From an uncultured Alphaproteobacteria bacterium (GTDB lineage Bacteria > Pseudomonadota > Alphaproteobacteria > Methylaequorales > Methylaequoraceae), in the NCBI GenBank assembly GCA_902595755.1, contig CACJRF010000001.1, positions 1,447 through 65,446 of the forward strand: DNA of 64,000 bases. The letters are read 5' to 3'. The position numbers and the translations under genes are program-made. The notes beneath the pieces are model-generated. The model saw nothing but the letters and a program-made list of their open reading frames with translations. It made no database searches and was not told where the DNA came from. Every line of letters starts with the position of its first letter. Positions within the stretch are counted from its first letter, which is position 1. Positions 5,174 through 52,420 of the stretch are shown here, piece after piece.

Positions 5174-6560
5174 AATTTTAAAGCCTCTTCTGAAGACATT
5201 AAATAAGAATGAATTTTGTACAGAACAGGGTATAATTAAGAATTATTGTATTGACTGGAGAGGCAAATTCAAAGGAACAGCTGAAATACTGTTTTTCCCA
5301 AAAAACGTTAAATCTGTTGTTAAAATTATGAAGTTTTGCTTCAAGAATTCGATTTCTATTGTACCTCAAGGAGGAAATACAAGTTTGGTAGGTGGTTCTG
5401 TACCAAGAGTGAATAAGGGAGAAGTAATAATAAATCTCTCAAAATTAAACAAAATTAGAGAAATAGATCCTATCAGTAATACTGTGACGCTCGAGGGTGG
5501 TTGTATTCTTCAGGATGCGAGTGATAAGTTAGAGCCGTTTGGACTTGAAATGCCTATTTCAATAGGTTCAAAAGGTAGTTGTCAAATCGGAGGTAATATT
5601 GCAACTAACGCCGGAGGACTTAATGTAATCAAATATGGTTCGATTAGAAGTAATATTCTGGGAATTGAAGCTGTCTTACCCAATGGAGAATTACATAATG
5701 ATTTAAAAACTATAAAAAAGAATAATACTGGTTTTGATTTAAAACAACTTTTAATTGGTTCCGAGGGTACTTTAGGCATAATTACAGCAGCAACTTTAAA
5801 GATTTACAAGAAGCCAAGTGAAAGAATAGTACTAATACTTTCTACTGACAAAATAAATGAAACTTTGGAGGCTTACAAAACCATAACAAAAAATTTTGGT
5901 GAATTAATTTCAGCATTTGAATTAATGAATAAGTTTTCAGTAAATCTAATAAAAAAACTAGATAATAAACTAAAACTACCTTTCTCAGGAAATTATTACT
6001 GTCTAATTGAACTAACAAATTTTTTAGATATTAAGAATTTCAATAATTTTATTATTGATAAGTTTGGTGAGGTTAGTTTTAAAAAAATGAAAATTATTAT
6101 TGCTAAATCTGAGTCAGAAAATAAAATTTTCTGGAGAATAAGAGAAGAAATACCTTTAGCCGAAAAACTCTTGAAAAACGTTATACAACATGACGTTTCT
6201 TTACCACTTAATTTAATTGATAAATTTATAGAAAAAAGTAGCTCTTCACTTAAAAAACTTGATCCTAAAATCTTTATAATAAACTTTGGACACTTAGGTG
6301 ATAATAATCTTCATTTCAATGTATTTGTTGACAAAATTCTTGATAATAAAGAATACAAGAAAATTCAAAAGAATATAAATAAAATTGTTTTTTCAAATGT
6401 TATAAAATATAACGGCTCAATCAGTGCAGAACATGGTATTGGTCAATTAAGAAGAAAAGAACTTAAAAAGTTTAAGAGTGATGACGAGATTAAAAAAATG
6501 GTCCAAATCAAAAAAATTTTTGATCCAAAAGGGATTATGAATCCAGGTAAGATTATTTAA
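5166..6560 (+). CDS. FAD-linked oxidase (GlcD / D-2-hydroxyacid dehydrogenase family)
   Basis: FAD_binding_4-like PQGGNTSLVGGSVP and C-terminal EHGIG motif. 8-nt overlap with sua5. Confidence 0.8.
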   Translation: MNKILKPLLKTLNKNEFCTEQGIIKNYCIDWRGKFKGTAEILFFPKNVKSVVKIMKFCFKNSISIVPQGGNTSLVGGSVPRVNKGEVIINLSKLNKIREIDPISNTVTLEGGCILQDASDKLEPFGLEMPISIGSKGSCQIGGNIATNAGGLNVIKYGSIRSNILGIEAVLPNGELHNDLKTIKKNNTGFDLKQLLIGSEGTLGIITAATLKIYKKPSERIVLILSTDKINETLEAYKTITKNFGELISAFELMNKFSVNLIKKLDNKLKLPFSGNYYCLIELTNFLDIKNFNNFIIDKFGEVSFKKMKIIIAKSESENKIFWRIREEIPLAEKLLKNVIQHDVSLPLNLIDKFIEKSSSSLKKLDPKIFIINFGHLGDNNLHFNVFVDKILDNKEYKKIQKNINKIVFSNVIKYNGSISAEHGIGQLRRKELKKFKSDDEIKKMVQIKKIFDPKGIMNPGKII

Positions 6561-7465
6561 TCAAGATAATTTTTATATATTTTATTCGCTTCATTACAAA
6601 TCTTTAATGGATTAATATTTAACCTAAACAATCCAACAAAATATAAAAAAAGATATTTTAGATACATTCTCCTATTTTTTTTCCCCCTGACAAATCTCCA
6701 TGCTCTCGCTGTTAAACGTCGCTGAGCATATAATTTAAGGCTTAAATTTAGTTCAGGGTTATCTTTGACAAACAATTCTAGTGATTTTGACACTCTATAT
6801 ATTTGATTATTTTTTTTTTCAGAGATTTGTCCTGGTGCTTTAAATGGTAAGATAGCTACTGGGTAATTTAGCCTAATAAAATTCCCAATATTTGCTAACC
6901 TCAGAGTTAATGAATATTCTTGACTATGAATAACTCTTTCATCACATCCACCTAGCTTTTTACATATATCTGTCCTAACCAGAAATTGTGAAGGGTTGAA
7001 CATTGAATTTCTCATGGCTGATTTAATTGGATTTTTTTGAAATGTTACGTTTATGTTCTCCAATTTATCATCTAATTTTTCAGATGAGATATTTTCTACT
7101 TTTCTTTGCAAACCATATGCAAGGATGAAATTCTTATTTTCCTCTAGAAGTTTTAATAAAATTAATGTGGTTTTATTTATAATTAAATCGTCTGCATCAA
7201 GAAATTTAATATATTTCATATTTGAAGCACAAATACCTGCATTTGTTGCGCTTGCTGAACCTTTATTCTTTTGAGAAATTATCTTACAATTTTTTAGATT
7301 TTTTCTCTCTCTTTTTAGTATCTCTAAAGAGTTATCTGTTGAACCATCGTTTATAAAAATATACTCTTTATCAAAATTACCGGTTTGTTGCCTAAGTGAT
7401 TTTATGACGGTTTTTAAATATTTAGCCTTATTAAAAACTGGTATAACAAAAGAAACTGACGTCAA
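6557..7465 (-). CDS. family 2 glycosyltransferase
   Basis: VSFVIPVFN...INDGSTDNS...LDADD (DXD) pattern. Confidence 0.8.
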   Translation of the reverse strand: MTSVSFVIPVFNKAKYLKTVIKSLRQQTGNFDKEYIFINDGSTDNSLEILKRERKNLKNCKIISQKNKGSASATNAGICASNMKYIKFLDADDLIINKTTLILLKLLEENKNFILAYGLQRKVENISSEKLDDKLENINVTFQKNPIKSAMRNSMFNPSQFLVRTDICKKLGGCDERVIHSQEYSLTLRLANIGNFIRLNYPVAILPFKAPGQISEKKNNQIYRVSKSLELFVKDNPELNLSLKLYAQRRLTARAWRFVRGKKNRRMYLKYLFLYFVGLFRLNINPLKICNEANKIYKNYLD

Positions 7466-7468
7466 AAT

Positions 7469-8176
7469 TTAATTCCCTTGATTAATAAGATATTTTTTTA
7501 ACTCCATATTTCCAAAAGCCGAGGCATTAGTTATTTCAGACCTTTTTTGATAAACCAATCCTATATTATTACATAAAACTTCATTGTTAGTGACATCTAC
7601 AATAATTGGGCCTGACCTAGTATCTGCTATAAAACTAGCGTTTCCTTTTCCTTCAATTTCAATACAATCCTCAAATGATTTTTTTTTGGATTTAAATTGA
7701 AAGTTTCTTCTTGATACTTTGTATTTCATTTTAAACCTTGTTCTTGGCTTAAAATTTCTGAGGGGAGGTTGAAAACCCTTGACTAAAAACAACTGTTCCT
7801 GAGTCTCCCATTCATTAGTTTTAAAAGTTAAATCTGGATAAACTACTTTTTGAACTGGCTCTACGATTCCTTCATTAAAGGCTAAGACTACTGATTTTCT
7901 AAATACAGTTTTTTTTTTTTCATCTATTTCATATGTGTAATAACTACCGTCTGAGTAAAGTTTTGATAATTCTACCTTATTATTTTGTTTATCTTTTTTT
8001 GCGTTAGTAATCATTATTCTTTTTAAGAATCTCTCATTTTTATATGATGAGTAAATATTTATTGAATAAGTCCATTTTAAATTAATGTCCGATGGAAAAA
8101 AATTATTTTTTTCTGGTGTACAACCCTGAATCAGAAGAAGAACTATAGCTAGATATTTAATATTAATATGTTTCAT
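7469..8176 (-). CDS. lipoprotein of unknown function (paralog of 33995..34681)
   Basis: Signal peptide with lipobox LIQGC. Collinear similarity to the 33995..34681 product (FFPSDINLKWTYSINI vs YFPLDEKKKWSYEVTI, plus C-terminal blocks). Confidence 0.6.
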   Translation of the reverse strand: MKHINIKYLAIVLLLIQGCTPEKNNFFPSDINLKWTYSINIYSSYKNERFLKRIMITNAKKDKQNNKVELSKLYSDGSYYTYEIDEKKKTVFRKSVVLAFNEGIVEPVQKVVYPDLTFKTNEWETQEQLFLVKGFQPPLRNFKPRTRFKMKYKVSRRNFQFKSKKKSFEDCIEIEGKGNASFIADTRSGPIIVDVTNNEVLCNNIGLVYQKRSEITNASAFGNMELKKYLINQGN

Positions 8177-8180
8177 AGAG

Positions 8181-8256
8181 TGGTGCCCAGGGGAGGAATT
8201 GAACCACCGACACAGCGATTTTCAGTCGCTTGCTCTACCAACTGAGCTACCTGGGC
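8181..8256 (-). tRNA. tRNA-Phe (GAA), CCA encoded
   Basis: Reverse complement GCCCAGGTAGCTCAGTTGGTAGAGCAAGCGACTGAAAATCGCTGTGTCGGTGGTTCAATTCCTCCCCTGGGCACCA. Full cloverleaf, anticodon loop CTGAAAA, canonical TTCAATT T-loop, one U-U in the T stem. Confidence 0.93.
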
Positions 8257-8307: not shown

Positions 8308-8889
8308 TCATATTATCTTAAATATTTTATACACTTCTGGAATTGATAATCCAACAACATTTGTATAAGAACCTTTTATTTTTCTAATAAATTTTGAGGC
8401 CATTCCCTGAATTGCATAACCTCCTGCCTTTCCTATACCTTCCTCTAATAGTTTATTACTTATATCAACTGGTTCTAATTTTTCAAAAAAAATTTCCGTA
8501 ATCACAACTTTACTAAATATCTTTCCTTCTTTTGAAATGATACAAATTCCACCGTAAACTTTATGTCTTCTGGCTGACAAATAATTAAGGTAAGTTTTAA
8601 CAGTATCTTTCGATTCAGCCTTATGAAGAATTCTTCCTGCCCTAAAGACTAATGTGTCCCCTGCAATAATAGTTGAGTCGTTAAAATTTTTATAACTTTT
8701 TCTAACATAAAGAGCTTTCTGAATTGCTATATTTCTAACACTTTTTTTTAAAGAACTTTTTTCTAAAAGGTTTTTTTCATTAATCATTGGTTTTATAATC
8801 CTAATTTTTTTTAATCCCAGATTTTGAAGTAGTTCAAGCCTTCTTGGTGAAGAGGAGGCAAGGATTATATTACCAAGCTTATTAAACAA
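8308..8889 (-). CDS. maf: Maf-like nucleoside triphosphate pyrophosphatase
   Basis: N-terminal ILASSSPRRLELL and C-terminal GAYAIQG-like motif (GGYAIQG). Confidence 0.85.
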   Translation of the reverse strand: MFNKLGNIILASSSPRRLELLQNLGLKKIRIIKPMINEKNLLEKSSLKKSVRNIAIQKALYVRKSYKNFNDSTIIAGDTLVFRAGRILHKAESKDTVKTYLNYLSARRHKVYGGICIISKEGKIFSKVVITEIFFEKLEPVDISNKLLEEGIGKAGGYAIQGMASKFIRKIKGSYTNVVGLSIPEVYKIFKII

Positions 8890-32155: not shown

Positions 32156-32866
32156 ATGACAAGATCACATAAACTTTTCTTAAATTGGCTATTACAATCA
32201 AGCCTTATATTTTTTTTGATTTATTTTTTAAGTGATCAAGGGATAATTTTTAAGATTGTATCTTCCGATAAAAGTTATATTACAACTCTAATAATGCTCG
32301 TTTATATTATCGTAACAATACATTGTGTTTATCATACTTTTCTCATTTCAACAGAATTAAATAAAGCACATATAATAAAAAAAAGTTTAATAAAAGAAAA
32401 TGTTAAATTAAGAATAATAGATAGTAATCTAATTCTTACATCAAAAGGAGAAATTTCTGATGGTATTGTTTCTAACTACTTTAAGGATCTTATTGGCTTA
32501 AAAAAGAATGGTGCAACAAGTCATGTGCAAATATTAGATAGTTATAAAAAAAAAACTGTAACCTTTTACGAATTTGGATGGTTTTGTTCAGATGTAATGC
32601 TTAAATTAGGACTCATTGGAACAGTAATAGGTTTTATAATTATGTTAAGTTCTTTGTCAGATATTACAACATTCGACGTTACTTTACTACAAGGTGTACT
32701 TACAACAATGGGAAGTGGAATGGGTGTAGCCTTATATACAACACTTTCAGCTCTTGTGGGCGGGGTTTTAATCGCAGTCCAATATTATAATTTAGAGAGT
32801 GGCTGCGAAGAGCTGTTTTCAGTGTTAAATCAAATTTCTGAAATTAGTATAGATAATAGCTTATAA
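32156..32866 (+). CDS. MotA/TolQ/ExbB-family proton-channel subunit
   Basis: C-terminal GLIGTVIGFIIML...GVALYTTLSALVGGVLIAVQYYNL matches the MotA_ExbB channel pattern. N-terminal TM pair plus a roughly 80-aa cytoplasmic loop. Confidence 0.7.
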   Translation: MTRSHKLFLNWLLQSSLIFFLIYFLSDQGIIFKIVSSDKSYITTLIMLVYIIVTIHCVYHTFLISTELNKAHIIKKSLIKENVKLRIIDSNLILTSKGEISDGIVSNYFKDLIGLKKNGATSHVQILDSYKKKTVTFYEFGWFCSDVMLKLGLIGTVIGFIIMLSSLSDITTFDVTLLQGVLTTMGSGMGVALYTTLSALVGGVLIAVQYYNLESGCEELFSVLNQISEISIDNSL

Positions 32867-33462
32867 TGTCATACTCAGGAAGAAGATTAAGGGCAGACCC
32901 CTTTACAGACCTTTTATTCAACGTCTTATTATCTTTTACTCTTTTAATGTTCTTAGCTATAATCTTTATGAATCCAATACCAAAAACAGGAGTAATAAAC
33001 CCCAAAGCAGAGTATATAATAACTGTTAGCTGGAAAGACAATAATCCAGATGATGTGGATACTTATGTTCAAAGTCCAACAGGAGATCTAGTATGGTTTA
33101 GAGGTAAAGAGGCGGGTTTTGTTCACTTGGATAGAGATGACAGAGGTTTATTGAATGATACTATTGAGGTAAATGGTGAAAAAGTTCAAAATCCTTTAAA
33201 CCAGGAAGTTGTTACTATTCGAGCTGTTGTACCAGGTGAATATATTGTGAATGTACATTATTATGCAACTAAGACTAATAATCCTATTGATGTTAATGTA
33301 AAGGTTGAAAAAGTTAATCCCCAATTAGAAGTAATTTATTATGGTACAATAAATTTAGAAAAAAAAGGTATAGAAAAGACAGCAACAAGATTTAATATAA
33401 CTCAAGGTGGAAGTGTTAGTGTCTCTGGCAATTTATATAAAAAACTTGTTCCAGATAACTAA
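32866..33462 (+). CDS. ExbD/TolR-like membrane anchor fused to an unrecognised beta-rich periplasmic domain
   Basis: TAATG overlap with the channel gene. N-terminus RADPFTDLLFNVLLSFTLLMFLAIIFM resembles the ExbD/TolR TM (conserved Asp, IIFM). The remainder has no OmpA/PG-binding or ExbD-like motif I recognise. Confidence 0.55.
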   Translation: MSYSGRRLRADPFTDLLFNVLLSFTLLMFLAIIFMNPIPKTGVINPKAEYIITVSWKDNNPDDVDTYVQSPTGDLVWFRGKEAGFVHLDRDDRGLLNDTIEVNGEKVQNPLNQEVVTIRAVVPGEYIVNVHYYATKTNNPIDVNVKVEKVNPQLEVIYYGTINLEKKGIEKTATRFNITQGGSVSVSGNLYKKLVPDN

Positions 33463-33476
33463 AGAAAGGAAAAATA

Positions 33477-33998
33477 ATGAGCTCAGAAATAATTTTAATA
33501 ATAACTGGATATATTCTTATAGGTTTCTTACTAACCTTATTTAATTTAAGAACAAATTTTCATTGGATTCTTAAATCCTCTATGATTGTTTTGACAGCAT
33601 TTTTTTATATCTTCACATATAACTCTTTCAAGGATCTCTTAGGTTGGCCATCTAGTGAAAAACTACCAGAAAGATTTAGGTTAATTTCTGCTCAGATATA
33701 TGAACCAAATGCAATACTAAATTCAGAAGGAGAAATATTCTTGTGGATTACGAATATGGATAATCTTGCTGGTCTAGGAGAACCGCGATCGCATATCATT
33801 CCATATAGTAAAGAAGTTCATGAAAAGATCTCTAAGGCACTGGTAAATCTAAAAAATGGAATACCACAAATGGGCGAACATTCAGATGAGAATAAGGAGA
33901 GTATAATTTCTTCTATAACAAAGAAGGAAAAAGTTATAGATGCAAGTACAAAATTAAATTTTTTTGATATGCCAAATCAACTTCTCCCTGAGAAATGA
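33477..33998 (+). CDS. two-TM hypothetical membrane protein
   Basis: Two N-terminal hydrophobic helices, then a soluble tail. Same tightly packed gene string. Confidence 0.5.
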   Translation: MSSEIILIITGYILIGFLLTLFNLRTNFHWILKSSMIVLTAFFYIFTYNSFKDLLGWPSSEKLPERFRLISAQIYEPNAILNSEGEIFLWITNMDNLAGLGEPRSHIIPYSKEVHEKISKALVNLKNGIPQMGEHSDENKESIISSITKKEKVIDASTKLNFFDMPNQLLPEK

Positions 33999-34681
33999 CT
34001 AAATATTTATTTATATTATTTATCTTTTTTATTAGTAGTTGCAAAGACTTAAGTAACTCATATTTCCCTCTTGATGAAAAAAAAAAATGGTCCTATGAAG
34101 TTACAATTAAACCTGAAATTGATAAACCGATAGTTTATAAAAAAATAAATTATTCAATTGGTAAAACAAAAATTGAAAATGAAGTATATTTTCCATTTTT
34201 AAGAGAAAATGGTTCGATTTATTATTACAAAAAAAATAAGGATGGAATCTTTAGAAATGGACTAAGCTTCGAGAAGGATAACAAAATTAACTTCCATAAA
34301 AAACAAAGGCTTGTTTTACCTAACCCAATAAATGTAGGAGATAAGTGGGAAGTAGATAGTAAAACTTATCTCATACTAAAAAGATATCCATACTATGATT
34401 ACAGGGCAACAACCAAATTTAAAATAAATTATGAAGTTATATCCAAAAAAGAGTTTATAAGAACTCCCTTGGGAAAATTTAATAATTGTATTTACCTTAA
34501 AGGTACGGGTAAAACAAAATTTATTGGTGATAGTGAAATAGGTGCCATTGAAATAAATATTTCATCTGAAGAATGGTATGCTAAAGGTATAGGTCTAATT
34601 AAAAGTAAAAGAATAGAAGAAACAAATTCAGATCTTTTTGGAAAAACGGTAATGGTACAAACCTTAGAAAGTTTTGAATAA
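33995..34681 (+). CDS. lipoprotein of unknown function (paralog of 7469..8176)
   Basis: Lipobox FISSC, ATGA overlap with the upstream gene, collinear similarity to the 7469..8176 product. Confidence 0.6.
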   Translation: MTKYLFILFIFFISSCKDLSNSYFPLDEKKKWSYEVTIKPEIDKPIVYKKINYSIGKTKIENEVYFPFLRENGSIYYYKKNKDGIFRNGLSFEKDNKINFHKKQRLVLPNPINVGDKWEVDSKTYLILKRYPYYDYRATTKFKINYEVISKKEFIRTPLGKFNNCIYLKGTGKTKFIGDSEIGAIEINISSEEWYAKGIGLIKSKRIEETNSDLFGKTVMVQTLESFE

Positions 34682-34684
34682 TTT

Positions 34685-35704
34685 ATGAGTATTAATAATA
34701 TTAACACAATACTATTAACAGCAGTTCTCTTATCAATTTTATTATATTACGGTAAGTTTATACTTTTGCCTTTAACGCTTGCATTATTCATATTTGTAAT
34801 TATCAAATCACTCTCAAAAAAACTCATAGATTCGACACTTAAATTATTTAAGATAAAAATCAATGATTTAGTGTCTTTTTTCTCTATTTTTTCTATTTTC
34901 ATCATAATTATTTATACATTTCTTAAAATTCTAAATTCCAATCTAAGGAATGTTACAGATAATTCTAGTTATTACCAAAATAATCTAAAAAACTTAATCA
35001 ATATATTTTCTGATTACAAAATTGAAAAGTTCATAGAATTAAACAATGTATTTAATGAAGTAAATTTTTTAGAAATATTCTCAAGAGTTATAAATTATTT
35101 TACTGAATTAACAGGAAACTTCTCCTTGATTTTGATTTATATTATTTTTTTTATGATTGAGGAAAAACTTTTAGCTGAAAAAATTAAATTTTTCTTTAAT
35201 AAGTTAACAACAAAAAACGTTCTAAAAAAAATTAATAACGATATTTTTAAATACTTTCAAATTAAAACCTTTACCAGTTTTCTTACAGGAATATTTACTT
35301 TTTTAGTCTTATATGTTTTTAACAGTGATCTTGCACCGACATTTGGTATTTTTGCATTCTTTCTTAATTTTATACCCTTCATTGGTTCTTTAATTTCGAT
35401 TATAATTCCAACTATTTTTTCACTGATTCAATTTTTTAGTTTTTTTGAATCAATTTTAATTTTAATAACATTAACATTCTCTCAAATTCTAATTGGTAAC
35501 TTCCTAGAAACAAAGATGATGGGAAAAACGTTAAATCTTAGTCCAATTGTAATGATTATATTTTTATCAATTATGGGTAAAGTTTGGGGCGTTGCCGGTA
35601 TGTTTTTAAGTGTACCTATATTAGTTTTTTTATTAATTATATTTAGCAACTTAAATTCAACAAAAAATCTCGCTATTTTAATTTCTGAAAAAATCAGATC
35701 TTAA
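34685..35704 (+). CDS. AI-2E (PerM/YhhT) family transporter
   Basis: 339 aa polytopic protein. C-terminal LSPIVMIIFLSIMGKVWGVAGMFLSVPI is typical of the family. Confidence 0.8.
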   Translation: MSINNINTILLTAVLLSILLYYGKFILLPLTLALFIFVIIKSLSKKLIDSTLKLFKIKINDLVSFFSIFSIFIIIIYTFLKILNSNLRNVTDNSSYYQNNLKNLINIFSDYKIEKFIELNNVFNEVNFLEIFSRVINYFTELTGNFSLILIYIIFFMIEEKLLAEKIKFFFNKLTTKNVLKKINNDIFKYFQIKTFTSFLTGIFTFLVLYVFNSDLAPTFGIFAFFLNFIPFIGSLISIIIPTIFSLIQFFSFFESILILITLTFSQILIGNFLETKMMGKTLNLSPIVMIIFLSIMGKVWGVAGMFLSVPILVFLLIIFSNLNSTKNLAILISEKIRS

Positions 35705-36792
35705 TTCCTCATTGATCTGTCTATAGAAAGTATAATTCCAAATCCAATAAAATAAGAAATCATTGATGACCCACCATAAGAAACTAAAGGCAAAGGTAAA
35801 CCAACAACAGGCAAAATACCAATCACCATAGACATATTAATCATTGAGACAAAGAAGTAGTTTGATATTATTCCATATCCAACCATTTTATTAAAATTAT
35901 CTGAAAAAGATTTACTTGCGATTGAATAAGTAAGATAGGTGATTAAACAAATTAGTCCAATTACAGAAATTGTACCTAGGAAACCAAATTCCTCCCCTAA
36001 CATTGAAAAAATAAAATCTGTATGCTTTTCAGGAAGAAAATCTAAATGTGACTGAGATCCCTTGGTCCAACCTTTTCCAAATATTCCTCCAGATCCAACT
36101 GCAATCTGAGATTGTATAATATGGTAACCAGATCCTAAAGGGTCACTCTCCGGATCAAATAATGTAAGAATTCTTTTTTGTTGATATTCCTTGAGACTTC
36201 CCCAAATATACGGAGCAGAAAATATGAAAAAAAGTGAAAGAACACCAAAAAATTTCCAGCTTATTCCAGATATAAAAAAAATTATTAAACCAAGTAGCAA
36301 AACTACCATTGCGGTCCCTAAGTCAGGCTGAACAAGTATTAAAAAGAATGGTGAAAGAATCAAAAAAATAGGTAAAATTAAAAAAATATAATCTCCTGCA
36401 CTCTGAAGTTTTTTTTCATCAAAAAACTTTGCTAATGTAATAATTACTAGAATCTTTATTAATTCAGAGGGTTGAAAAACAAATCCACCTAGATTCAACC
36501 ATCTTCTAGATCCCTTACCTACTATTCCATAAAACGTAGCAAGAATAAGTAAAATAATTCCAATTAGATAAAAAAGATAAGCATGTTTTTTTATAAAATT
36601 TAAATCAGTCAAACTTACAGCTATCATTATTAACAGGCCTAAACATATTTTACTAAAATGTGAAATAAATACTCTGTCATCATCACCATATGTTGCGCTA
36701 TATATCATAACTAGACCAACAAACGAAAGGAAAGATATTAAAAAAACTAATAACCAGTTTAATTTCTTAAATTGTATTAATATTTCAGACAT
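35701..36792 (-). CDS. rodA: peptidoglycan glycosyltransferase RodA (SEDS family)
   Basis: FtsW/RodA/SpoVE motifs (QPSELIK, DFIFSMLGEEFG, PLPLVSYGGSS). Downstream of mrdA. Confidence 0.9.
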   Translation of the reverse strand: MSEILIQFKKLNWLLVFLISFLSFVGLVMIYSATYGDDDRVFISHFSKICLGLLIMIAVSLTDLNFIKKHAYLFYLIGIILLILATFYGIVGKGSRRWLNLGGFVFQPSELIKILVIITLAKFFDEKKLQSAGDYIFLILPIFLILSPFFLILVQPDLGTAMVVLLLGLIIFFISGISWKFFGVLSLFFIFSAPYIWGSLKEYQQKRILTLFDPESDPLGSGYHIIQSQIAVGSGGIFGKGWTKGSQSHLDFLPEKHTDFIFSMLGEEFGFLGTISVIGLICLITYLTYSIASKSFSDNFNKMVGYGIISNYFFVSMINMSMVIGILPVVGLPLPLVSYGGSSMISYFIGFGIILSIDRSMRN

Positions 36793-38569
36793 AGTTTAGA
36801 TAATTTTTTAAAGAAAATTCTAGAATTCTTTTAGCAATTGGTGCCGCAACTTTGGAACCACTCCCCATATGTTCTGCAATTATAGTTACAGCAAATTTAG
36901 GATTATTATATGGAGCATAAGCTGTAAAAACTGAATGATCCCTTAACTTATAATCTATTTCATCGTTTTTAAGAACGCCTGACTCTCTTTCTTCCATGGA
37001 TATCTTGCGAACCTGTGATGTTCCAGTTTTTCCTGCCATCTTATAATTAGATGATAATCTCGACTTAAATGCAGTTCCATCAAAATCATTTACAACACTA
37101 TACATAGATTTTCTAATATAATTTAGAGCCTTATCTGATAGATTCATTCTTTGGAACTCTTTATTCTTTACCTTTAATATAGAAGGAAAGATTTTTCTTC
37201 CAGTTGCTATTCTTGCTGTCATCAGGGTTATTTGGAGTGGAGTGGACAAAACATATCCTTGTCCAATCACAGTATTTAATGTTTCTCCCCGATGCCACCT
37301 CTCTTTTCTATTTAACTTTTTCCAACTTCTATTTGGCATGATTCCACCAAGTTCATTTGGAATATCAATATTTGACTTAATTCCGTATGAAAATTGTTTA
37401 GAAAATAATGATAAATCATCAATATCTATTGATTTTGCAAGATTATAAAAATAACAATCACATGATTTTTGAATTGCCCCTAAAAGGTTTACTTTCCCAT
37501 GACCCTCTTTCTTCCAACAGTGGAATCTTCTATTACCAAATTGTAAAGAACCAGTACAATTAATTTCTTTATGTATATTCAATTTCATTTTCTCAATTGC
37601 GAATAAAGCTGTTATTAATTTGTATGTTGATCCTGGTGAATATAACCCTGCAATAGATCTATTTAATAGTGGATTGAACTCATGATTTAAAAGTTGATTC
37701 CATTTCTGATTACTCACTCCGTTACTAAATTCGTTATTATTGAATGATGGTGATGATGCTAAACAGTTTACCCCCCCAGTTTGACAATCAAGTATAACAG
37801 CAGCACCATTAACTTTTTTCAACTCTTCCATTGCTTTAGACTGAATATCTAATATCAAATTAGTTTTTATATTCTTACCTGGTATTGGATTCTTTCTTAC
37901 TATTTCTTTTTTTATTATTCCTCTAGAGTTAGCCTCTAATTTAACCCAGCCATCAGTTCCAACTAACTGATCATCAAGATTCTTTTCCACACCTGATATC
38001 CCAATTTTAAGGTTGGCCAGTTTTTTATTTTTATTAATTTTTTTGTACCCTACATAACCAAGAACATGCGAAAAATTTTCATCATGGTTATAATGCCTTA
38101 CCTTTTCTTTTGTTATTAATAAGTAAGGAAATTGATTTGACATCAACTCAAACAACTCCAACTCATCCATAGTTAAGTTTTTTTTAATTGTAATAAAGTC
38201 AGATAAATTTTCATCCCTTAAATTTAATTTAACCTGATCTAAATCAAATTTTGAAAATTTGATAATACTTTCTAATTTTTGAATTGTTTGACCAATAAAC
38301 TTCTTTTTTTCTTTAAGAATATTTAGTTGATAATCTATTTGGTTTGACGCAATGGGTTTATCATACAGATCTAAAATAGTTCCTCTTTCTGGATATAATA
38401 TTTTAATTTTAGTTTTATTAGATTCAGATAATTTACCGTATTTTGATTTTTGTAAAATTTGTAAGTAATATAATTTACTTATTACTATACCTGTTATTAG
38501 AGATTTTGACATACCAAGAATGAAGGCTCTTCTTCTTAATGTTTTAGATTTTTTAACTGCCTTATTCAT
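36785..38569 (-). CDS. mrdA: penicillin-binding protein 2 (elongasome transpeptidase)
   Basis: SxxK (STYK) and KTGT motifs. Position between mreD and rodA. Confidence 0.9.
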   Translation of the reverse strand: MNKAVKKSKTLRRRAFILGMSKSLITGIVISKLYYLQILQKSKYGKLSESNKTKIKILYPERGTILDLYDKPIASNQIDYQLNILKEKKKFIGQTIQKLESIIKFSKFDLDQVKLNLRDENLSDFITIKKNLTMDELELFELMSNQFPYLLITKEKVRHYNHDENFSHVLGYVGYKKINKNKKLANLKIGISGVEKNLDDQLVGTDGWVKLEANSRGIIKKEIVRKNPIPGKNIKTNLILDIQSKAMEELKKVNGAAVILDCQTGGVNCLASSPSFNNNEFSNGVSNQKWNQLLNHEFNPLLNRSIAGLYSPGSTYKLITALFAIEKMKLNIHKEINCTGSLQFGNRRFHCWKKEGHGKVNLLGAIQKSCDCYFYNLAKSIDIDDLSLFSKQFSYGIKSNIDIPNELGGIMPNRSWKKLNRKERWHRGETLNTVIGQGYVLSTPLQITLMTARIATGRKIFPSILKVKNKEFQRMNLSDKALNYIRKSMYSVVNDFDGTAFKSRLSSNYKMAGKTGTSQVRKISMEERESGVLKNDEIDYKLRDHSVFTAYAPYNNPKFAVTIIAEHMGSGSKVAAPIAKRILEFSLKNYLNYV

Positions 38570-39059
38570 TAATATAACCTAATCTATTATTAAATTTTTT
38601 TACAATTGAATTGAATAGTGGAAATAATATTATACTTAAAAAAAAACTTAAAACTATTCTCTTAAATTCAAAGTAATTATCAAAAAAAACAAATTGTATA
38701 AATTTGTTTACAGAAATATAGGCTAATAATATTAATATAAAGTTTGTCCATATTATCTTAAAGTCAATTGATACAATAGTTCTGTGTTTTCTTTTCAAGA
38801 AATGTAAAGTTATTAAAAAAAATAGACTTGTTATTCCTATAACTTCACCATCCAAGAAATCATAAAAAAGTCCAACTAGCAATATCCATAAAGGTCTAAA
38901 TCTTTCTGAATCATTGTTTATTAATGCATAAAGAAACATAAAAGTGAAATATGGTTTTATAATTTCTTTATCTGAAAAATATCCAGGTGCAAACTCAAAG
39001 AAGATGAACAAAATTAATAAAAAGTATGGAATGATCCTTAAAAAAAAACTTAAAACCAT
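38562..39059 (-). CDS. mreD: rod shape-determining protein MreD
   Basis: 165-aa polytopic protein directly after mreC. Call rests mainly on position and topology. Confidence 0.65.
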   Translation of the reverse strand: MVLSFFLRIIPYFLLILFIFFEFAPGYFSDKEIIKPYFTFMFLYALINNDSERFRPLWILLVGLFYDFLDGEVIGITSLFFLITLHFLKRKHRTIVSIDFKIIWTNFILILLAYISVNKFIQFVFFDNYFEFKRIVLSFFLSIILFPLFNSIVKKFNNRLGYINE

Positions 39060-39068
39060 TTTTATATT

Positions 39069-39908
39069 TTAATCTAAATTTATTTTTTTAAAATCAAATA
39101 TTAAAACATTTACAAAAATTGAATCAGACTTTTTGGCCGTAGGTTGTATATAAACATCGTTTAATGTTTTTACAATTTTTCCAATTATAATCCCTTCTTT
39201 AAAGAATCCTGCTGCATCTGTTGAAATAACTAGTTCATTATGCTCAAGTTTAAACTTATTCTCTAGATGTTTTAAAACTAATCGATCACCGTCTCCTCTA
39301 GCAAAAACTGAATGTTTAGTATTTACAGATATACCCGGTAAGACAGAATCAGAACTATAAATTGTAAGGACTTTTGATGAATAAGTACCAACTTGGCTAA
39401 CTCGGCCTAAAAGTCCATTTTCGTTAAAAACTAAATCATTAGTTTTTAACCCTTCTTTTTTACCAATATCAATATATATGGAATTATCATCATTTCTATA
39501 CCCATCTATTATGATTCTAGCCGATAATTTTTCAACATAATTAACTTCTTGAAGCTTTAATAGGTTTTTTAGTCTAAAGTTTTCTACTTCTAATAAATTA
39601 ACTTTATTAAATTCTTTTTTTAAAAATTTATTCTCATTTTCAAGTGATTTGTTTAAGGTTTTATAATTACCTATCTTCTCAAAATATTGAATTAAATCTG
39701 AAACCAATTGAAAGGGCATATTAGCAAATACTAATCCAGGTTTGCTTGCTGAAACAATGAGGTATTTCATATTGTTAACTGTTTTACTTTTTGATAGTGA
39801 CATCAACACAAATAACAACGAAAGAGTGATACAAATTAACAATTCTAATATATACCTATTAAGTGGGCCAGAATTTATTCCTCTCGAAAAAGAAGACTTA
39901 TACCCCAT
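39069..39908 (-). CDS. mreC: rod shape-determining protein MreC
   Basis: N-terminal TM, coiled-coil (ENENKFLKKEFNKVNLLEVENFRLKNLL), then beta domains. Confidence 0.85.
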   Translation of the reverse strand: MGYKSSFSRGINSGPLNRYILELLICITLSLLFVLMSLSKSKTVNNMKYLIVSASKPGLVFANMPFQLVSDLIQYFEKIGNYKTLNKSLENENKFLKKEFNKVNLLEVENFRLKNLLKLQEVNYVEKLSARIIIDGYRNDDNSIYIDIGKKEGLKTNDLVFNENGLLGRVSQVGTYSSKVLTIYSSDSVLPGISVNTKHSVFARGDGDRLVLKHLENKFKLEHNELVISTDAAGFFKEGIIIGKIVKTLNDVYIQPTAKKSDSIFVNVLIFDFKKINLD

Positions 39909-39909
39909 A

Positions 39910-42577
<2,668 letters not shown>

Positions 42578-52082: not shown

Positions 52083-52336
52083 TCTATAATAGTAAAAGCA
52101 TAAATCATTACAATCAATTTAAGGTTTTATTTTTTTAAAATTAGGTTTAAGATATAAATGCTGTTTTCAGCTATAGCAATAAACGTTTGATTTGAACTGA
52201 GACGGACCCGGGGGCGGTACCCGGCACCTCCACCAAAATATATTTTAATGGGGGTGAAACAGGATCGACGTGCATGTAGACGGTCAAAAACTTTGCTCGG
52301 AATGGTACCAACGTTATCGGACTAAACTTTATAAAT

Positions 52337-52369
52337 GCCAACGATAATGAAATGGCACTCGCTGCTTAA
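52337..52369 (+). other. tmRNA tag reading frame ANDNEMALAA-stop
   Basis: GCC AAC GAT AAT GAA ATG GCA CTC GCT GCT TAA. The stop is embedded in the hairpin GCTTAA-tt-TTAAGC (52364-52377). The C-terminal LAA is typical of ClpXP degrons. Confidence 0.85.
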
Positions 52370-52420
52370 TTTTAAGCAAGCGCGGTTATGAGATTACCGG
52401 GCAACAGAAGTCTCATCGGC

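Follow-up and report, generated by a model that had tools for sequence, protein, structure and literature searches.

A three-gene unit encoding a candidate envelope motor of the MotA/TolQ/ExbB class in Proteobacteria and phages

MotAB, ExbBD, TolQR, GldLM, and ZorAB are proton-driven motors built in a 5:2 stoichiometry, in which the task of each system is set by the B subunit and its partners, and each of these systems opened a field of its own. In this study, a locus at positions 32156 to 34681 was analyzed in a stretch of 64,000 nucleotides (the window) from an uncultured alphaproteobacterium (GenBank assembly GCA_902595755.1, contig CACJRF010000001.1, positions 1,447 to 65,446), whose closest relatives are the Pelagibacteraceae and metagenome-assembled and single-amplified genomes of the SAR11 type. 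The locus comprises four plus-strand genes, the first three of which encode proteins designated here as the A, B, and C subunits (the trio) and the fourth a predicted lipoprotein. With a probability of roughly 0.55, the trio is read as a proton-driven A-B-C inner-membrane envelope motor of the MotA/TolQ/ExbB class whose composition is new. Although no described family includes the B or the C subunit, the trio is widespread, and it is present both in phages and in bacteria of the SAR11 type, whose cells rank among the most abundant in the ocean.

A related concept was proposed for TolQ-like genes without a syntenic ExbD or TolR, which were paired with an Asp-bearing transmembrane (TM) helix fused to a vWA domain (PMC12204202, Mol Biol Evol 2025). 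No description of the trio was found in the literature on DUF2135/YfaP, DUF3108, the pelagimyophage MotA, and phage-encoded ExbB/TolQ, and none of the literature searched described a beta-sandwich B subunit, the C subunit, or a phage-borne trio. The name 'motA' in phage papers stands for an unrelated T4 transcription factor.

Subunits encoded by the trio

Gene 1 (32156..32866, plus strand, 236 aa) encodes the A subunit, a divergent membrane protein. It matched the Pfam family PF01618 (MotA_ExbB) at 31.2 bits, above the gathering score of 22.9, and A subunits from phages and from divergent members also exceeded the cutoff (30.2 and 23.3 bits). In sequence searches of NCBIfam and PDB, the best matches were weak and included MotP, PomA, and MotA, with E-values from 0.003 to 0.2. 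A family profile of 22 members was compared with E. coli proteins by hhalign, where TolQ was matched with an E-value of 2e-4 and a probability of 45% over the last two TM helices, and the probabilities for ExbB and MotA were 8.9% and 17.6%, respectively. The alignment placed T156 and T196 of gene 1 on T145 and T178 of TolQ. These two threonines of TolQ, like T148 and T181 of ExbB, are taken here to line the pore. Among the 22 family members, T156, T195, and T196 were invariant, and further invariant positions included G141, W142, F143, D146, K150, G152, L153, G155, G159, and F160, as well as G188, M189, and A192 in the last segment.

The hydropathy profile of gene 1 contained four segments (residues 7-36, 40-66, 143-171, and 188-209), and a K/R-rich loop of about 75 residues connected TM2 to TM3; the predicted layout is thus MotA-like with four TM segments, and not the three-TM layout of ExbB and TolQ. 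An earlier interpretation made from the DNA letters alone (hereafter the sequence-only reading) had described gene 1 as an ExbB-like channel. Its superfamily assignment stood, as the PF01618 cutoff was passed, but the protein is not specific to ExbB and is nearly equidistant from TolQ, ExbB, and MotA. Judged by its profile match, gene 1 is a very divergent member of the MotA/TolQ/ExbB superfamily.

Gene 2 (32866..33462, plus strand, 198 aa) encodes the B subunit, which is predicted to consist of a single TM helix and an all-beta periplasmic domain. An Arg-rich cytoplasmic N-terminus is followed by the TM helix, which carries the invariant motif FTDLLFN with Asp15. In the AlphaFold2 (AF2) model, with a mean predicted local distance difference test (pLDDT) score of 74.4, the helix spans residues 12-35 and the all-beta domain residues 49-187, and the two are joined by a conserved linker of about 12 residues. 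D15 was invariant in 45 close members, and among 24 divergent members from cells and phages, every one had an acidic TM residue (Asp in 23 and Glu in one). Across these 24 members, the invariant positions were W56, D63, D65, L88, D91, D92, G94, E114, and R119, with D15, E49, D89, D98, G104, N112, N151, P152, E170, and F176 being near-invariant. The invariant residues mapped to the TM helix, the linker, and an acidic cluster. This cluster (D63, D65, D89, D91, D92, D98, N112, and E114) probably binds a metal such as Ca2+, or a ligand, and so extreme a conservation of the periplasmic domain suggests that its envelope ligand is universal.

The topology of gene 2, a single N-in TM helix with an Asp near the cytoplasmic end, is that of an ExbD/TolR-like anchor, as had been proposed from the sequence. 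Neither Pfam nor NCBIfam gave a match to ExbD, TolR, MotB, or OmpA at E<=1, and no PDB sequence was matched by the single sequence or by the profile. The hhalign probabilities were 2.7% against E. coli TolR and 0.1% against both ExbD and MotB, and the sole aligned stretch was the PFxD motif, where DPFTDLL of gene 2 lined up with TPFIDVM of ExbD. A Foldseek search of the PDB with the AF2 model returned generic beta-sandwiches, the best being 2qng, a protein of unknown function (E=5.7e-5, template modelling score 0.45-0.51), and the 50 best matches listed included no ExbD, TolR, GldM, or PorM structure. Similarly, the search of BFVD returned only generic matches to uncharacterised phage proteins. 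Weak Pfam matches to PPC (E=0.054, 14.8 bits against a cutoff of 25.9) and DUF2135 (E=0.029, 14.9 bits against a cutoff of 22) fit a PPC-like jelly-roll. Homologues were named 'hypothetical protein' except for one Joint Genome Institute record that says 'YfaP (DUF2135 family)', and the PHROGs provided no functional label, with phrog_1735 (unknown function) weakly sharing the beta-sandwich. By profile and by predicted fold, gene 2 is not an ordinary ExbD or TolR and represents a non-canonical B subunit. The beta-rich domain that the sequence-only reading could not match to ExbD, TolR, or the OmpA-type domain of MotB thus withstood both the profile and the Foldseek searches, with hhalign probabilities of at most 2.7%, an all-beta AF2 fold, and structural matches to generic beta-sandwiches only.

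Gene 3 (33477..33998, plus strand, 173 aa) encodes the C subunit. The expectation of a two-TM protein was borne out by the AF2 model (mean pLDDT 75.6), where TM helices at residues 3-24 and 30-50 form a hairpin that is followed by a small alpha/beta domain, a disordered linker of low confidence, and a conserved C-terminal tail. The tail (residues 159-173) has the pattern F[FY]D[LM]P.(P/Q)L(F/L)P(E/D)K, or xIxF[FY]D[LM]PxxLxP[ED]K in extended form, and it was kept from SAR11 to the phage versions, one of which (L085) reads Y.LPPPSYPQK. Invariant positions of gene 3 were W30, K33, G56, W57, P103, R104, G133, E134, F162, D164, P166, and K173. The model had no Foldseek match in the PDB (best E=0.14), and the protein fell into no Pfam, NCBIfam, or PHROG family. 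The K/R residues in the short loop between the helices suggest, weakly and by the positive-inside rule, that the alpha/beta domain is periplasmic. The position of the conserved tail after a disordered linker suggests a docking peptide, which perhaps binds by beta-strand addition in the manner of the TonB and TolA boxes.

Conservation of the trio in bacteria and phages

The genes of the locus are closely packed. As read from the DNA, the preceding apt gene and gene 1 are separated by a 4-nt gap (stop TAA, ATAG, ATG), genes 1 and 2 overlap in TAATG, genes 2 and 3 are separated by a TAA, a 14-nt spacer that includes an AAGGA ribosome-binding motif, and an ATG, genes 3 and 4 overlap in ATGA, and gene 4 is followed by perM after a 3-nt gap (TAA-TTT-ATG). 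The open reading frames (ORFs), their coordinates, these five junctions, and the motifs quoted in the sequence-only reading all agreed with the DNA. Since close packing is the norm in a streamlined genome with a GC content of about 29%, as found in the window, co-function cannot be argued from packing alone. What supports the trio is instead its co-occurrence across lineages.

A pattern scan with one genome per species identified a relative of gene 2 in at least 546 species-level genomes, and loci were inspected from the best 80 of these 546. An exhaustive profile search for gene 2 gave 2,095 representatives at 50% identity clustering, including 460 with E<=1e-30, and most representatives were 200-230 aa long with a full-length match. 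Genes 1, 2, and 3 were contiguous in 83 of 84 cellular loci, and the exception lay on an incomplete contig. The lengths of the three proteins were nearly fixed (about 247, 200, and 172 aa), and in every locus, whether cellular or phage, gene 1 directly preceded the B gene. The gap between A and B had a median of 1 nt and was at most 5 nt in 70 of 77 non-redundant cellular loci, high-GC genomes included. Between Alphaproteobacteria and Gammaproteobacteria, the identity was 64-68% for gene 2 (about 66%), 28-40% for gene 1, and 33-43% for gene 3; judging by these values, gene 2 is far more constrained than genes 1 and 3. A 411-aa protein (P0407) was considered as an A-B fusion, but the garbled sequence of its N-terminal half points to a frameshift in the assembly, and it was not used as evidence.

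The conserved unit is formed by genes 1 to 3, and the accessory partners are lineage-specific. The proposal of a four-gene module was therefore only partly upheld by the comparison of gene neighbourhoods: genes 1 to 3 are co-conserved, but gene 4 occurs only in Alphaproteobacteria and is replaced by other genes in Gammaproteobacteria. Gene 4 (33995..34681, plus strand, 228 aa) encodes a predicted lipoprotein with the lipobox FISS↓C. It followed the trio in every SAR11-type locus that was long enough to show it, and it was found at 33-37% identity after the trio in two distant alphaproteobacterial genomes (L004/L041 and L042). It was absent from all 42 gammaproteobacterial loci and from the phage loci, and hence it is an accessory of Alphaproteobacteria and not a core component. 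Its match to Pfam PF21347 (DUF3108_like) was borderline, at 27.3 bits against a cutoff of 27.0, the homologue in L004 scored 15.9 bits, and there was no PDB sequence match.

A paralog of gene 4, also noticed in the sequence-only reading, is encoded at 7469..8176 on the minus strand (235 aa, lipobox LIQG↓C) and is unlinked to the trio. The two proteins matched with a phmmer E-value of 8e-25 and shared 28% identity over 218 aa in tblastn, and the paralog had no Pfam match. It lies just downstream of tRNA-Phe (8181-8256), with no motor gene linked, and its neighbours are a gene at 6557-7465 (minus strand) that by eye resembles family-2 glycosyltransferases and an unidentified 193-aa ORF at 8308-8889 (minus strand).

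In the Gammaproteobacteria, including Legionellales, the trio was part of a cluster in the order YkuD, DUF302, A, B, C, usually followed by a VWA-FHA gene (42 loci, L043-L084; for example, L052, 4165-8632). The YkuD and DUF302 genes were each linked in 39 of 42 loci and the VWA-TM-FHA gene in 32 of 42, and the six-gene cluster was usually located beside tilS and accA. The YkuD L,D-transpeptidase has a signal peptide and the HG...GC motif, the DUF302 protein has a lipobox and is a lipoprotein, and the VWA-TM-FHA protein has a signal peptide that precedes the VWA domain, a C-proximal TM helix, and an FHA domain on the cytoplasmic side. By these signals, all accessory proteins (gene 4, YkuD, DUF302, and VWA) are predicted to face the periplasm. 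The trio was also found bare, in an unrelated neighbourhood, in another alphaproteobacterial lineage. Upstream of a bare trio in a Geminicoccaceae-like alphaproteobacterium (L106, 5060-5929, minus strand), entericidin and fasciclin-domain genes and a cluster for trehalose synthesis and Wzy were observed, a context that is envelope-flavoured but unrelated to the other contexts of the trio.

Carriage of the trio by phages was unexpected and had been missed by the sequence-only reading. Relatives of gene 2 at 32-42% identity were encoded in 14 IMG/VR contigs (L087-L100) of up to 230 kb. In all 16 phage or phage-like loci, which comprise these 14 viral contigs and the metagenomic L085 and L086, A was directly upstream of B; the hidden Markov model of C identified gene 3 in 12 of the 16, and for at least three of the remaining four, an ORF of similar size came after B. 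The phage A subunit is shortened, with the cytoplasmic loop absent: it measured 155-257 aa in the 16 loci and 155-180 aa in the viral contigs, and 147-180 aa over the set composed of L087-L100, L085, L108/L109, L102, and L101. The trios in IMG/VR contigs were flanked by genes for a T4-type DNA polymerase (phrog_262, E=4e-195), Hsp20, and thymidylate kinase, and the T4-type flanking genes indicate that the contigs are true phages. Another trio (L108) was flanked by a late sigma factor, a gp46/47-like nuclease, and a phage metallopeptidase, and in T4-like phages, which include marine as well as Rhizobium myophages, the trio lay among replication and late-transcription genes.

Among cultured phages, the trio was identified as gp191-gp192-gp193 in the T4-like Rhizobium phage P10VF (L102, 123684-125188) and as p038, p040, and p042 in the temperate Sinorhizobium phage 16-3 (L101, 22651-24512). 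It was also present in the T4-like Rhizobium myophages RL38J1, RL2RES, AF3, and P9VFCI and in several RHph phages, and all phage copies were annotated as hypothetical. No accessory gene was found beside the phage trios, which suggests that the trio is self-sufficient and acts on something generic in the envelope of the Gram-negative host. Phages P10VF and 16-3 make the function testable in a genetically tractable system, an opportunity that SAR11 genes of unknown function rarely offer.

The perM-like gene of an AI-2E family transporter (34685-35704, plus strand, Pfam 130.9 bits) was syntenic in all SAR11-type loci and absent around the trio in other lineages, and it is probably a neighbour and not a component. 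It is followed by mreB-mreC-mreD-mrdA-rodA (35701-40992, minus strand), which is convergent with genes 1 to 4. The adjacency to this elongasome cluster, mentioned in the sequence-only reading, is real in the window, but among the loci compared the synteny from apt through perM to rodA was limited to the SAR11-type lineage, and with the convergent transcription it was rejected as a weak functional clue. A scan for promoters and terminators did not outperform shuffled sequence, with 31 promoter-like sites found where 33.8 were expected, and the operon boundaries could therefore not be set from it.

As had been noted from the sequence, no TonB, TolA, TolB, Pal, or flagellar gene was found in the vicinity of the locus. 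In the 64-kb window, phmmer and tblastn searches at E<=1 gave no match to E. coli TolQ, TolR, TolA, TolB, Pal, CpoB, or YbgC, no TonB and no homologue of the E. coli Exb or Mot proteins was detectable, and flagellar genes were missing from both the locus and the window. Pelagibacter genomes have been reported to keep a separate TolQRAB operon, which argues, for a genome seen here as a 64-kb window, that the trio is an additional and distinct stator-like system; the distinction from ordinary Tol or Ton systems drawn earlier from the sequence thus held. A permuted (two-piece) alphaproteobacterial transfer-messenger RNA (tmRNA) was also identified in the window at 52121-52418 (plus strand, Rfam RF01849, 204 bits), where ARAGORN did not report it. 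All ORFs in the region after it, from 52.4 to 56 kb, were short or without annotation, and this region could be an island for which the tmRNA gene served as the integration site.

Proposed mechanism and alternative explanations

In the proposed motor, the A subunit would form a proton-conducting ring, possibly with the 5:2 stoichiometry of the known motors, and the TM helix of B would sit inside this ring with Asp15 facing T156 and T195/T196 of A. Proton flow would move A and B relative to each other, on the principle of MotAB, ExbBD, and TolQR. The PPC-like beta-sandwich of B would be kept near the periplasmic face of the membrane by the short conserved linker, and a conserved envelope ligand would be bound directly or through the metal ion, such as Ca2+, that the acidic cluster probably holds. 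C would act as a two-TM partner, whose periplasmic domain and tail would pass the work to lineage-specific periplasmic proteins, namely the gene 4 lipoprotein in Alphaproteobacteria and YkuD, the DUF302 lipoprotein, and the VWA-TM-FHA protein in Gammaproteobacteria. The most likely task would be the maintenance or remodelling of the peptidoglycan and outer-membrane layers, and for phages, the borrowed bare trio would be a means of altering the host envelope in the course of infection. A role in envelope maintenance is suggested by the linkage to YkuD, the lipoprotein partners, and the phage carriage, and a housekeeping character by the conserved synteny in each lineage and the absence of matches to defence models.

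The trio is accordingly rated as a new subtype of the 5:2-class motors. A more far-reaching proposal, possible but doubtful, would be that it represents an unrecognised class of proton motor, with A as the ring, the acidic beta-sandwich B as the axle, and the two-TM C as the arm, that mechanically services the links between peptidoglycan and outer membrane together with L,D-transpeptidases and lipoproteins, that it provides a core envelope function in abundant marine Proteobacteria, and that it was captured by T4-like and temperate phages to stabilise or re-wire the envelope of the infected host.

Several observations weigh against the motor as proposed. Complex formation, stoichiometry, and proton coupling are suggested by the coupling of the genes, not by an experiment or a multimer model. 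The family match of the A subunit spans only about 65 residues (151-215), and gene 1 was not recovered by pairwise searches with E. coli TolQ, ExbB, and MotA. The TM helix of B has no statistically significant similarity to ExbD or TolR, and the confidence of the AF2 models is moderate (pLDDT 74-76). On a linker of about 12 residues, the beta-sandwich could not reach the peptidoglycan layer, which makes direct binding of the wall by B doubtful. Additionally, the link to peptidoglycan rests on the YkuD neighbourhood in one class and on the SAR11 adjacency, which is convergent and not conserved. The accessory genes are wholly different between lineages and absent in phages, and the output may differ accordingly.

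Among the alternatives, the one that survived best, itself unlikely, is a gated ion pathway or a sensor of the proton motive force or of cations (Ca2+- or H+-linked), in which the acidic beta-sandwich would be an ion-binding gate. The invariant acidic cluster and the very short linker would keep such a gate at the channel mouth, phage A subunits of 155-180 aa without a cytoplasmic loop imply that no cytoplasmic output is needed, and the accessory partners are not conserved. However, the characterised members of the MotA/ExbB superfamily all transduce work and do not move ions as an end in itself (PMC9389320), the strict conservation of C, with its periplasmic domain and tail, suggests an output arm, and the fact that in two classes the trio is linked to periplasmic enzymes and lipoproteins suggests an envelope task.

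Phage carriage could also be explained by an anti-phage or superinfection-exclusion system with a Zorya-like envelope sensor, a reading considered quite unlikely. The matches of gene 1 to ZorA were weak, with E-values of 0.05-0.07 in PADLOC and 12.3 bits for the NCBIfam model antiphage_ZorA_2 (E=0.06), far under the curated cutoffs (100 bits for the latter), and PADLOC gave no match for genes 2 to 4. In favour of this reading, exclusion genes are common in T4-like and temperate phages, both of which carry the trio, and the distribution of the trio over Proteobacteria is patchy. Yet in both SAR11-type bacteria and Gammaproteobacteria it holds a fixed syntenic place among housekeeping genes, as opposed to a variable island, no nuclease, protease, nucleoside triphosphatase, or other effector is linked, and the lytic T4-like phages carry it among genes for replication and late transcription. 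The extreme purifying selection on gene 2 is likewise unlike that of typical defence genes.

A motor like GldLM or PorLM, driving secretion or surface motility through an Ig-like periplasmic shaft, appeared very improbable. Its likeness to the trio, a beta-sandwich in the periplasmic domain of B and a small cytoplasmic part of A, is loose, and a single beta-sandwich of about 140 residues on a 12-residue linker cannot span the periplasm. Neither GldM nor PorM was among the 50 best Foldseek matches listed, genes for type IX secretion or gliding were missing from the neighbourhoods, and the trio is carried by phages and by SAR11-type cells, which are planktonic.

It is scarcely credible that a fast-evolving AT-rich genome has simply let an ordinary energiser of the Tol or Ton kind (ExbB/ExbD or TolQ/TolR) diverge, for although gene 1 passed PF01618 with TolQ as its nearest hhalign match and gene 2 has an ExbD-like topology with the PFxD motif, gene 2 gave no ExbD or TolR match, its periplasmic fold is predicted to be all-beta and not the alpha/beta fold of ExbD, its 64-68% identity to proteins of high-GC Gammaproteobacteria argues against AT-driven drift, and the window lacks TonB, TolA, TolB, and Pal with a separate TolQRAB operon reported for Pelagibacter.

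Comparison with known motor systems

Among the closest precedents of the motor proposed for the trio are TolQ-TolR(-TolA) and ExbB-ExbD(-TonB). The shared features include an A subunit of the PF01618 family with pore threonines aligned to those of TolQ, a B subunit with the same topology and a conserved TM Asp, and a three-gene operon in which gene 3 encodes a membrane-anchored protein in the position of TonB or TolA, as well as the linkage to lipoproteins and envelope enzymes. In contrast, the periplasmic domain of B, an acidic sandwich that is predicted to be all-beta and is joined to the helix by a 12-residue linker, has no relation to ExbD or TolR in sequence or fold. The C subunit differs from TonB and TolA in its two predicted TM helices, the absence of a proline-rich spacer, and its novel fold, and its alignments show no SHLS-type motif. 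Besides, the A subunit has four predicted TM segments, where TolQ and ExbB have three, and a short cytoplasmic loop that is absent in the phage versions.

With MotAB and PomAB, the trio shares the four-TM layout of A, the weak best matches to MotP, PomA, and MotA, and the TM Asp in B. However, B has no OmpA-like peptidoglycan-binding domain, plug, or long linker as found in MotB and PomB, and the cytoplasmic loop of A is much shorter than the torque-generating domain of MotA and missing in phages. The pattern of conservation is also reversed: MotA is more conserved than MotB among MotAB homologues (PMC12505986), whereas in the trio B is more conserved than A. The likeness to Zorya ZorAB consists of an A subunit from the same superfamily, a context that is neither flagellar nor of the Ton/Tol type, and the weak ZorA matches, but the trio lacks a ZorB-like peptidoglycan-binding domain, the long tail of ZorA, and effectors of the ZorC/D type, and its synteny is that of housekeeping genes.

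The transpore-helix vWA proteins (PMC12204202), also among the closest precedents, represent the same concept as the trio, namely an Asp-bearing helix that carries a periplasmic domain other than that of ExbD, and the gammaproteobacterial version of the trio likewise includes a periplasmic VWA protein. The two differ in that the Asp helix of the trio carries a predicted beta-sandwich, the VWA-TM-FHA protein is separate and optional, and a conserved C subunit is part of the unit.

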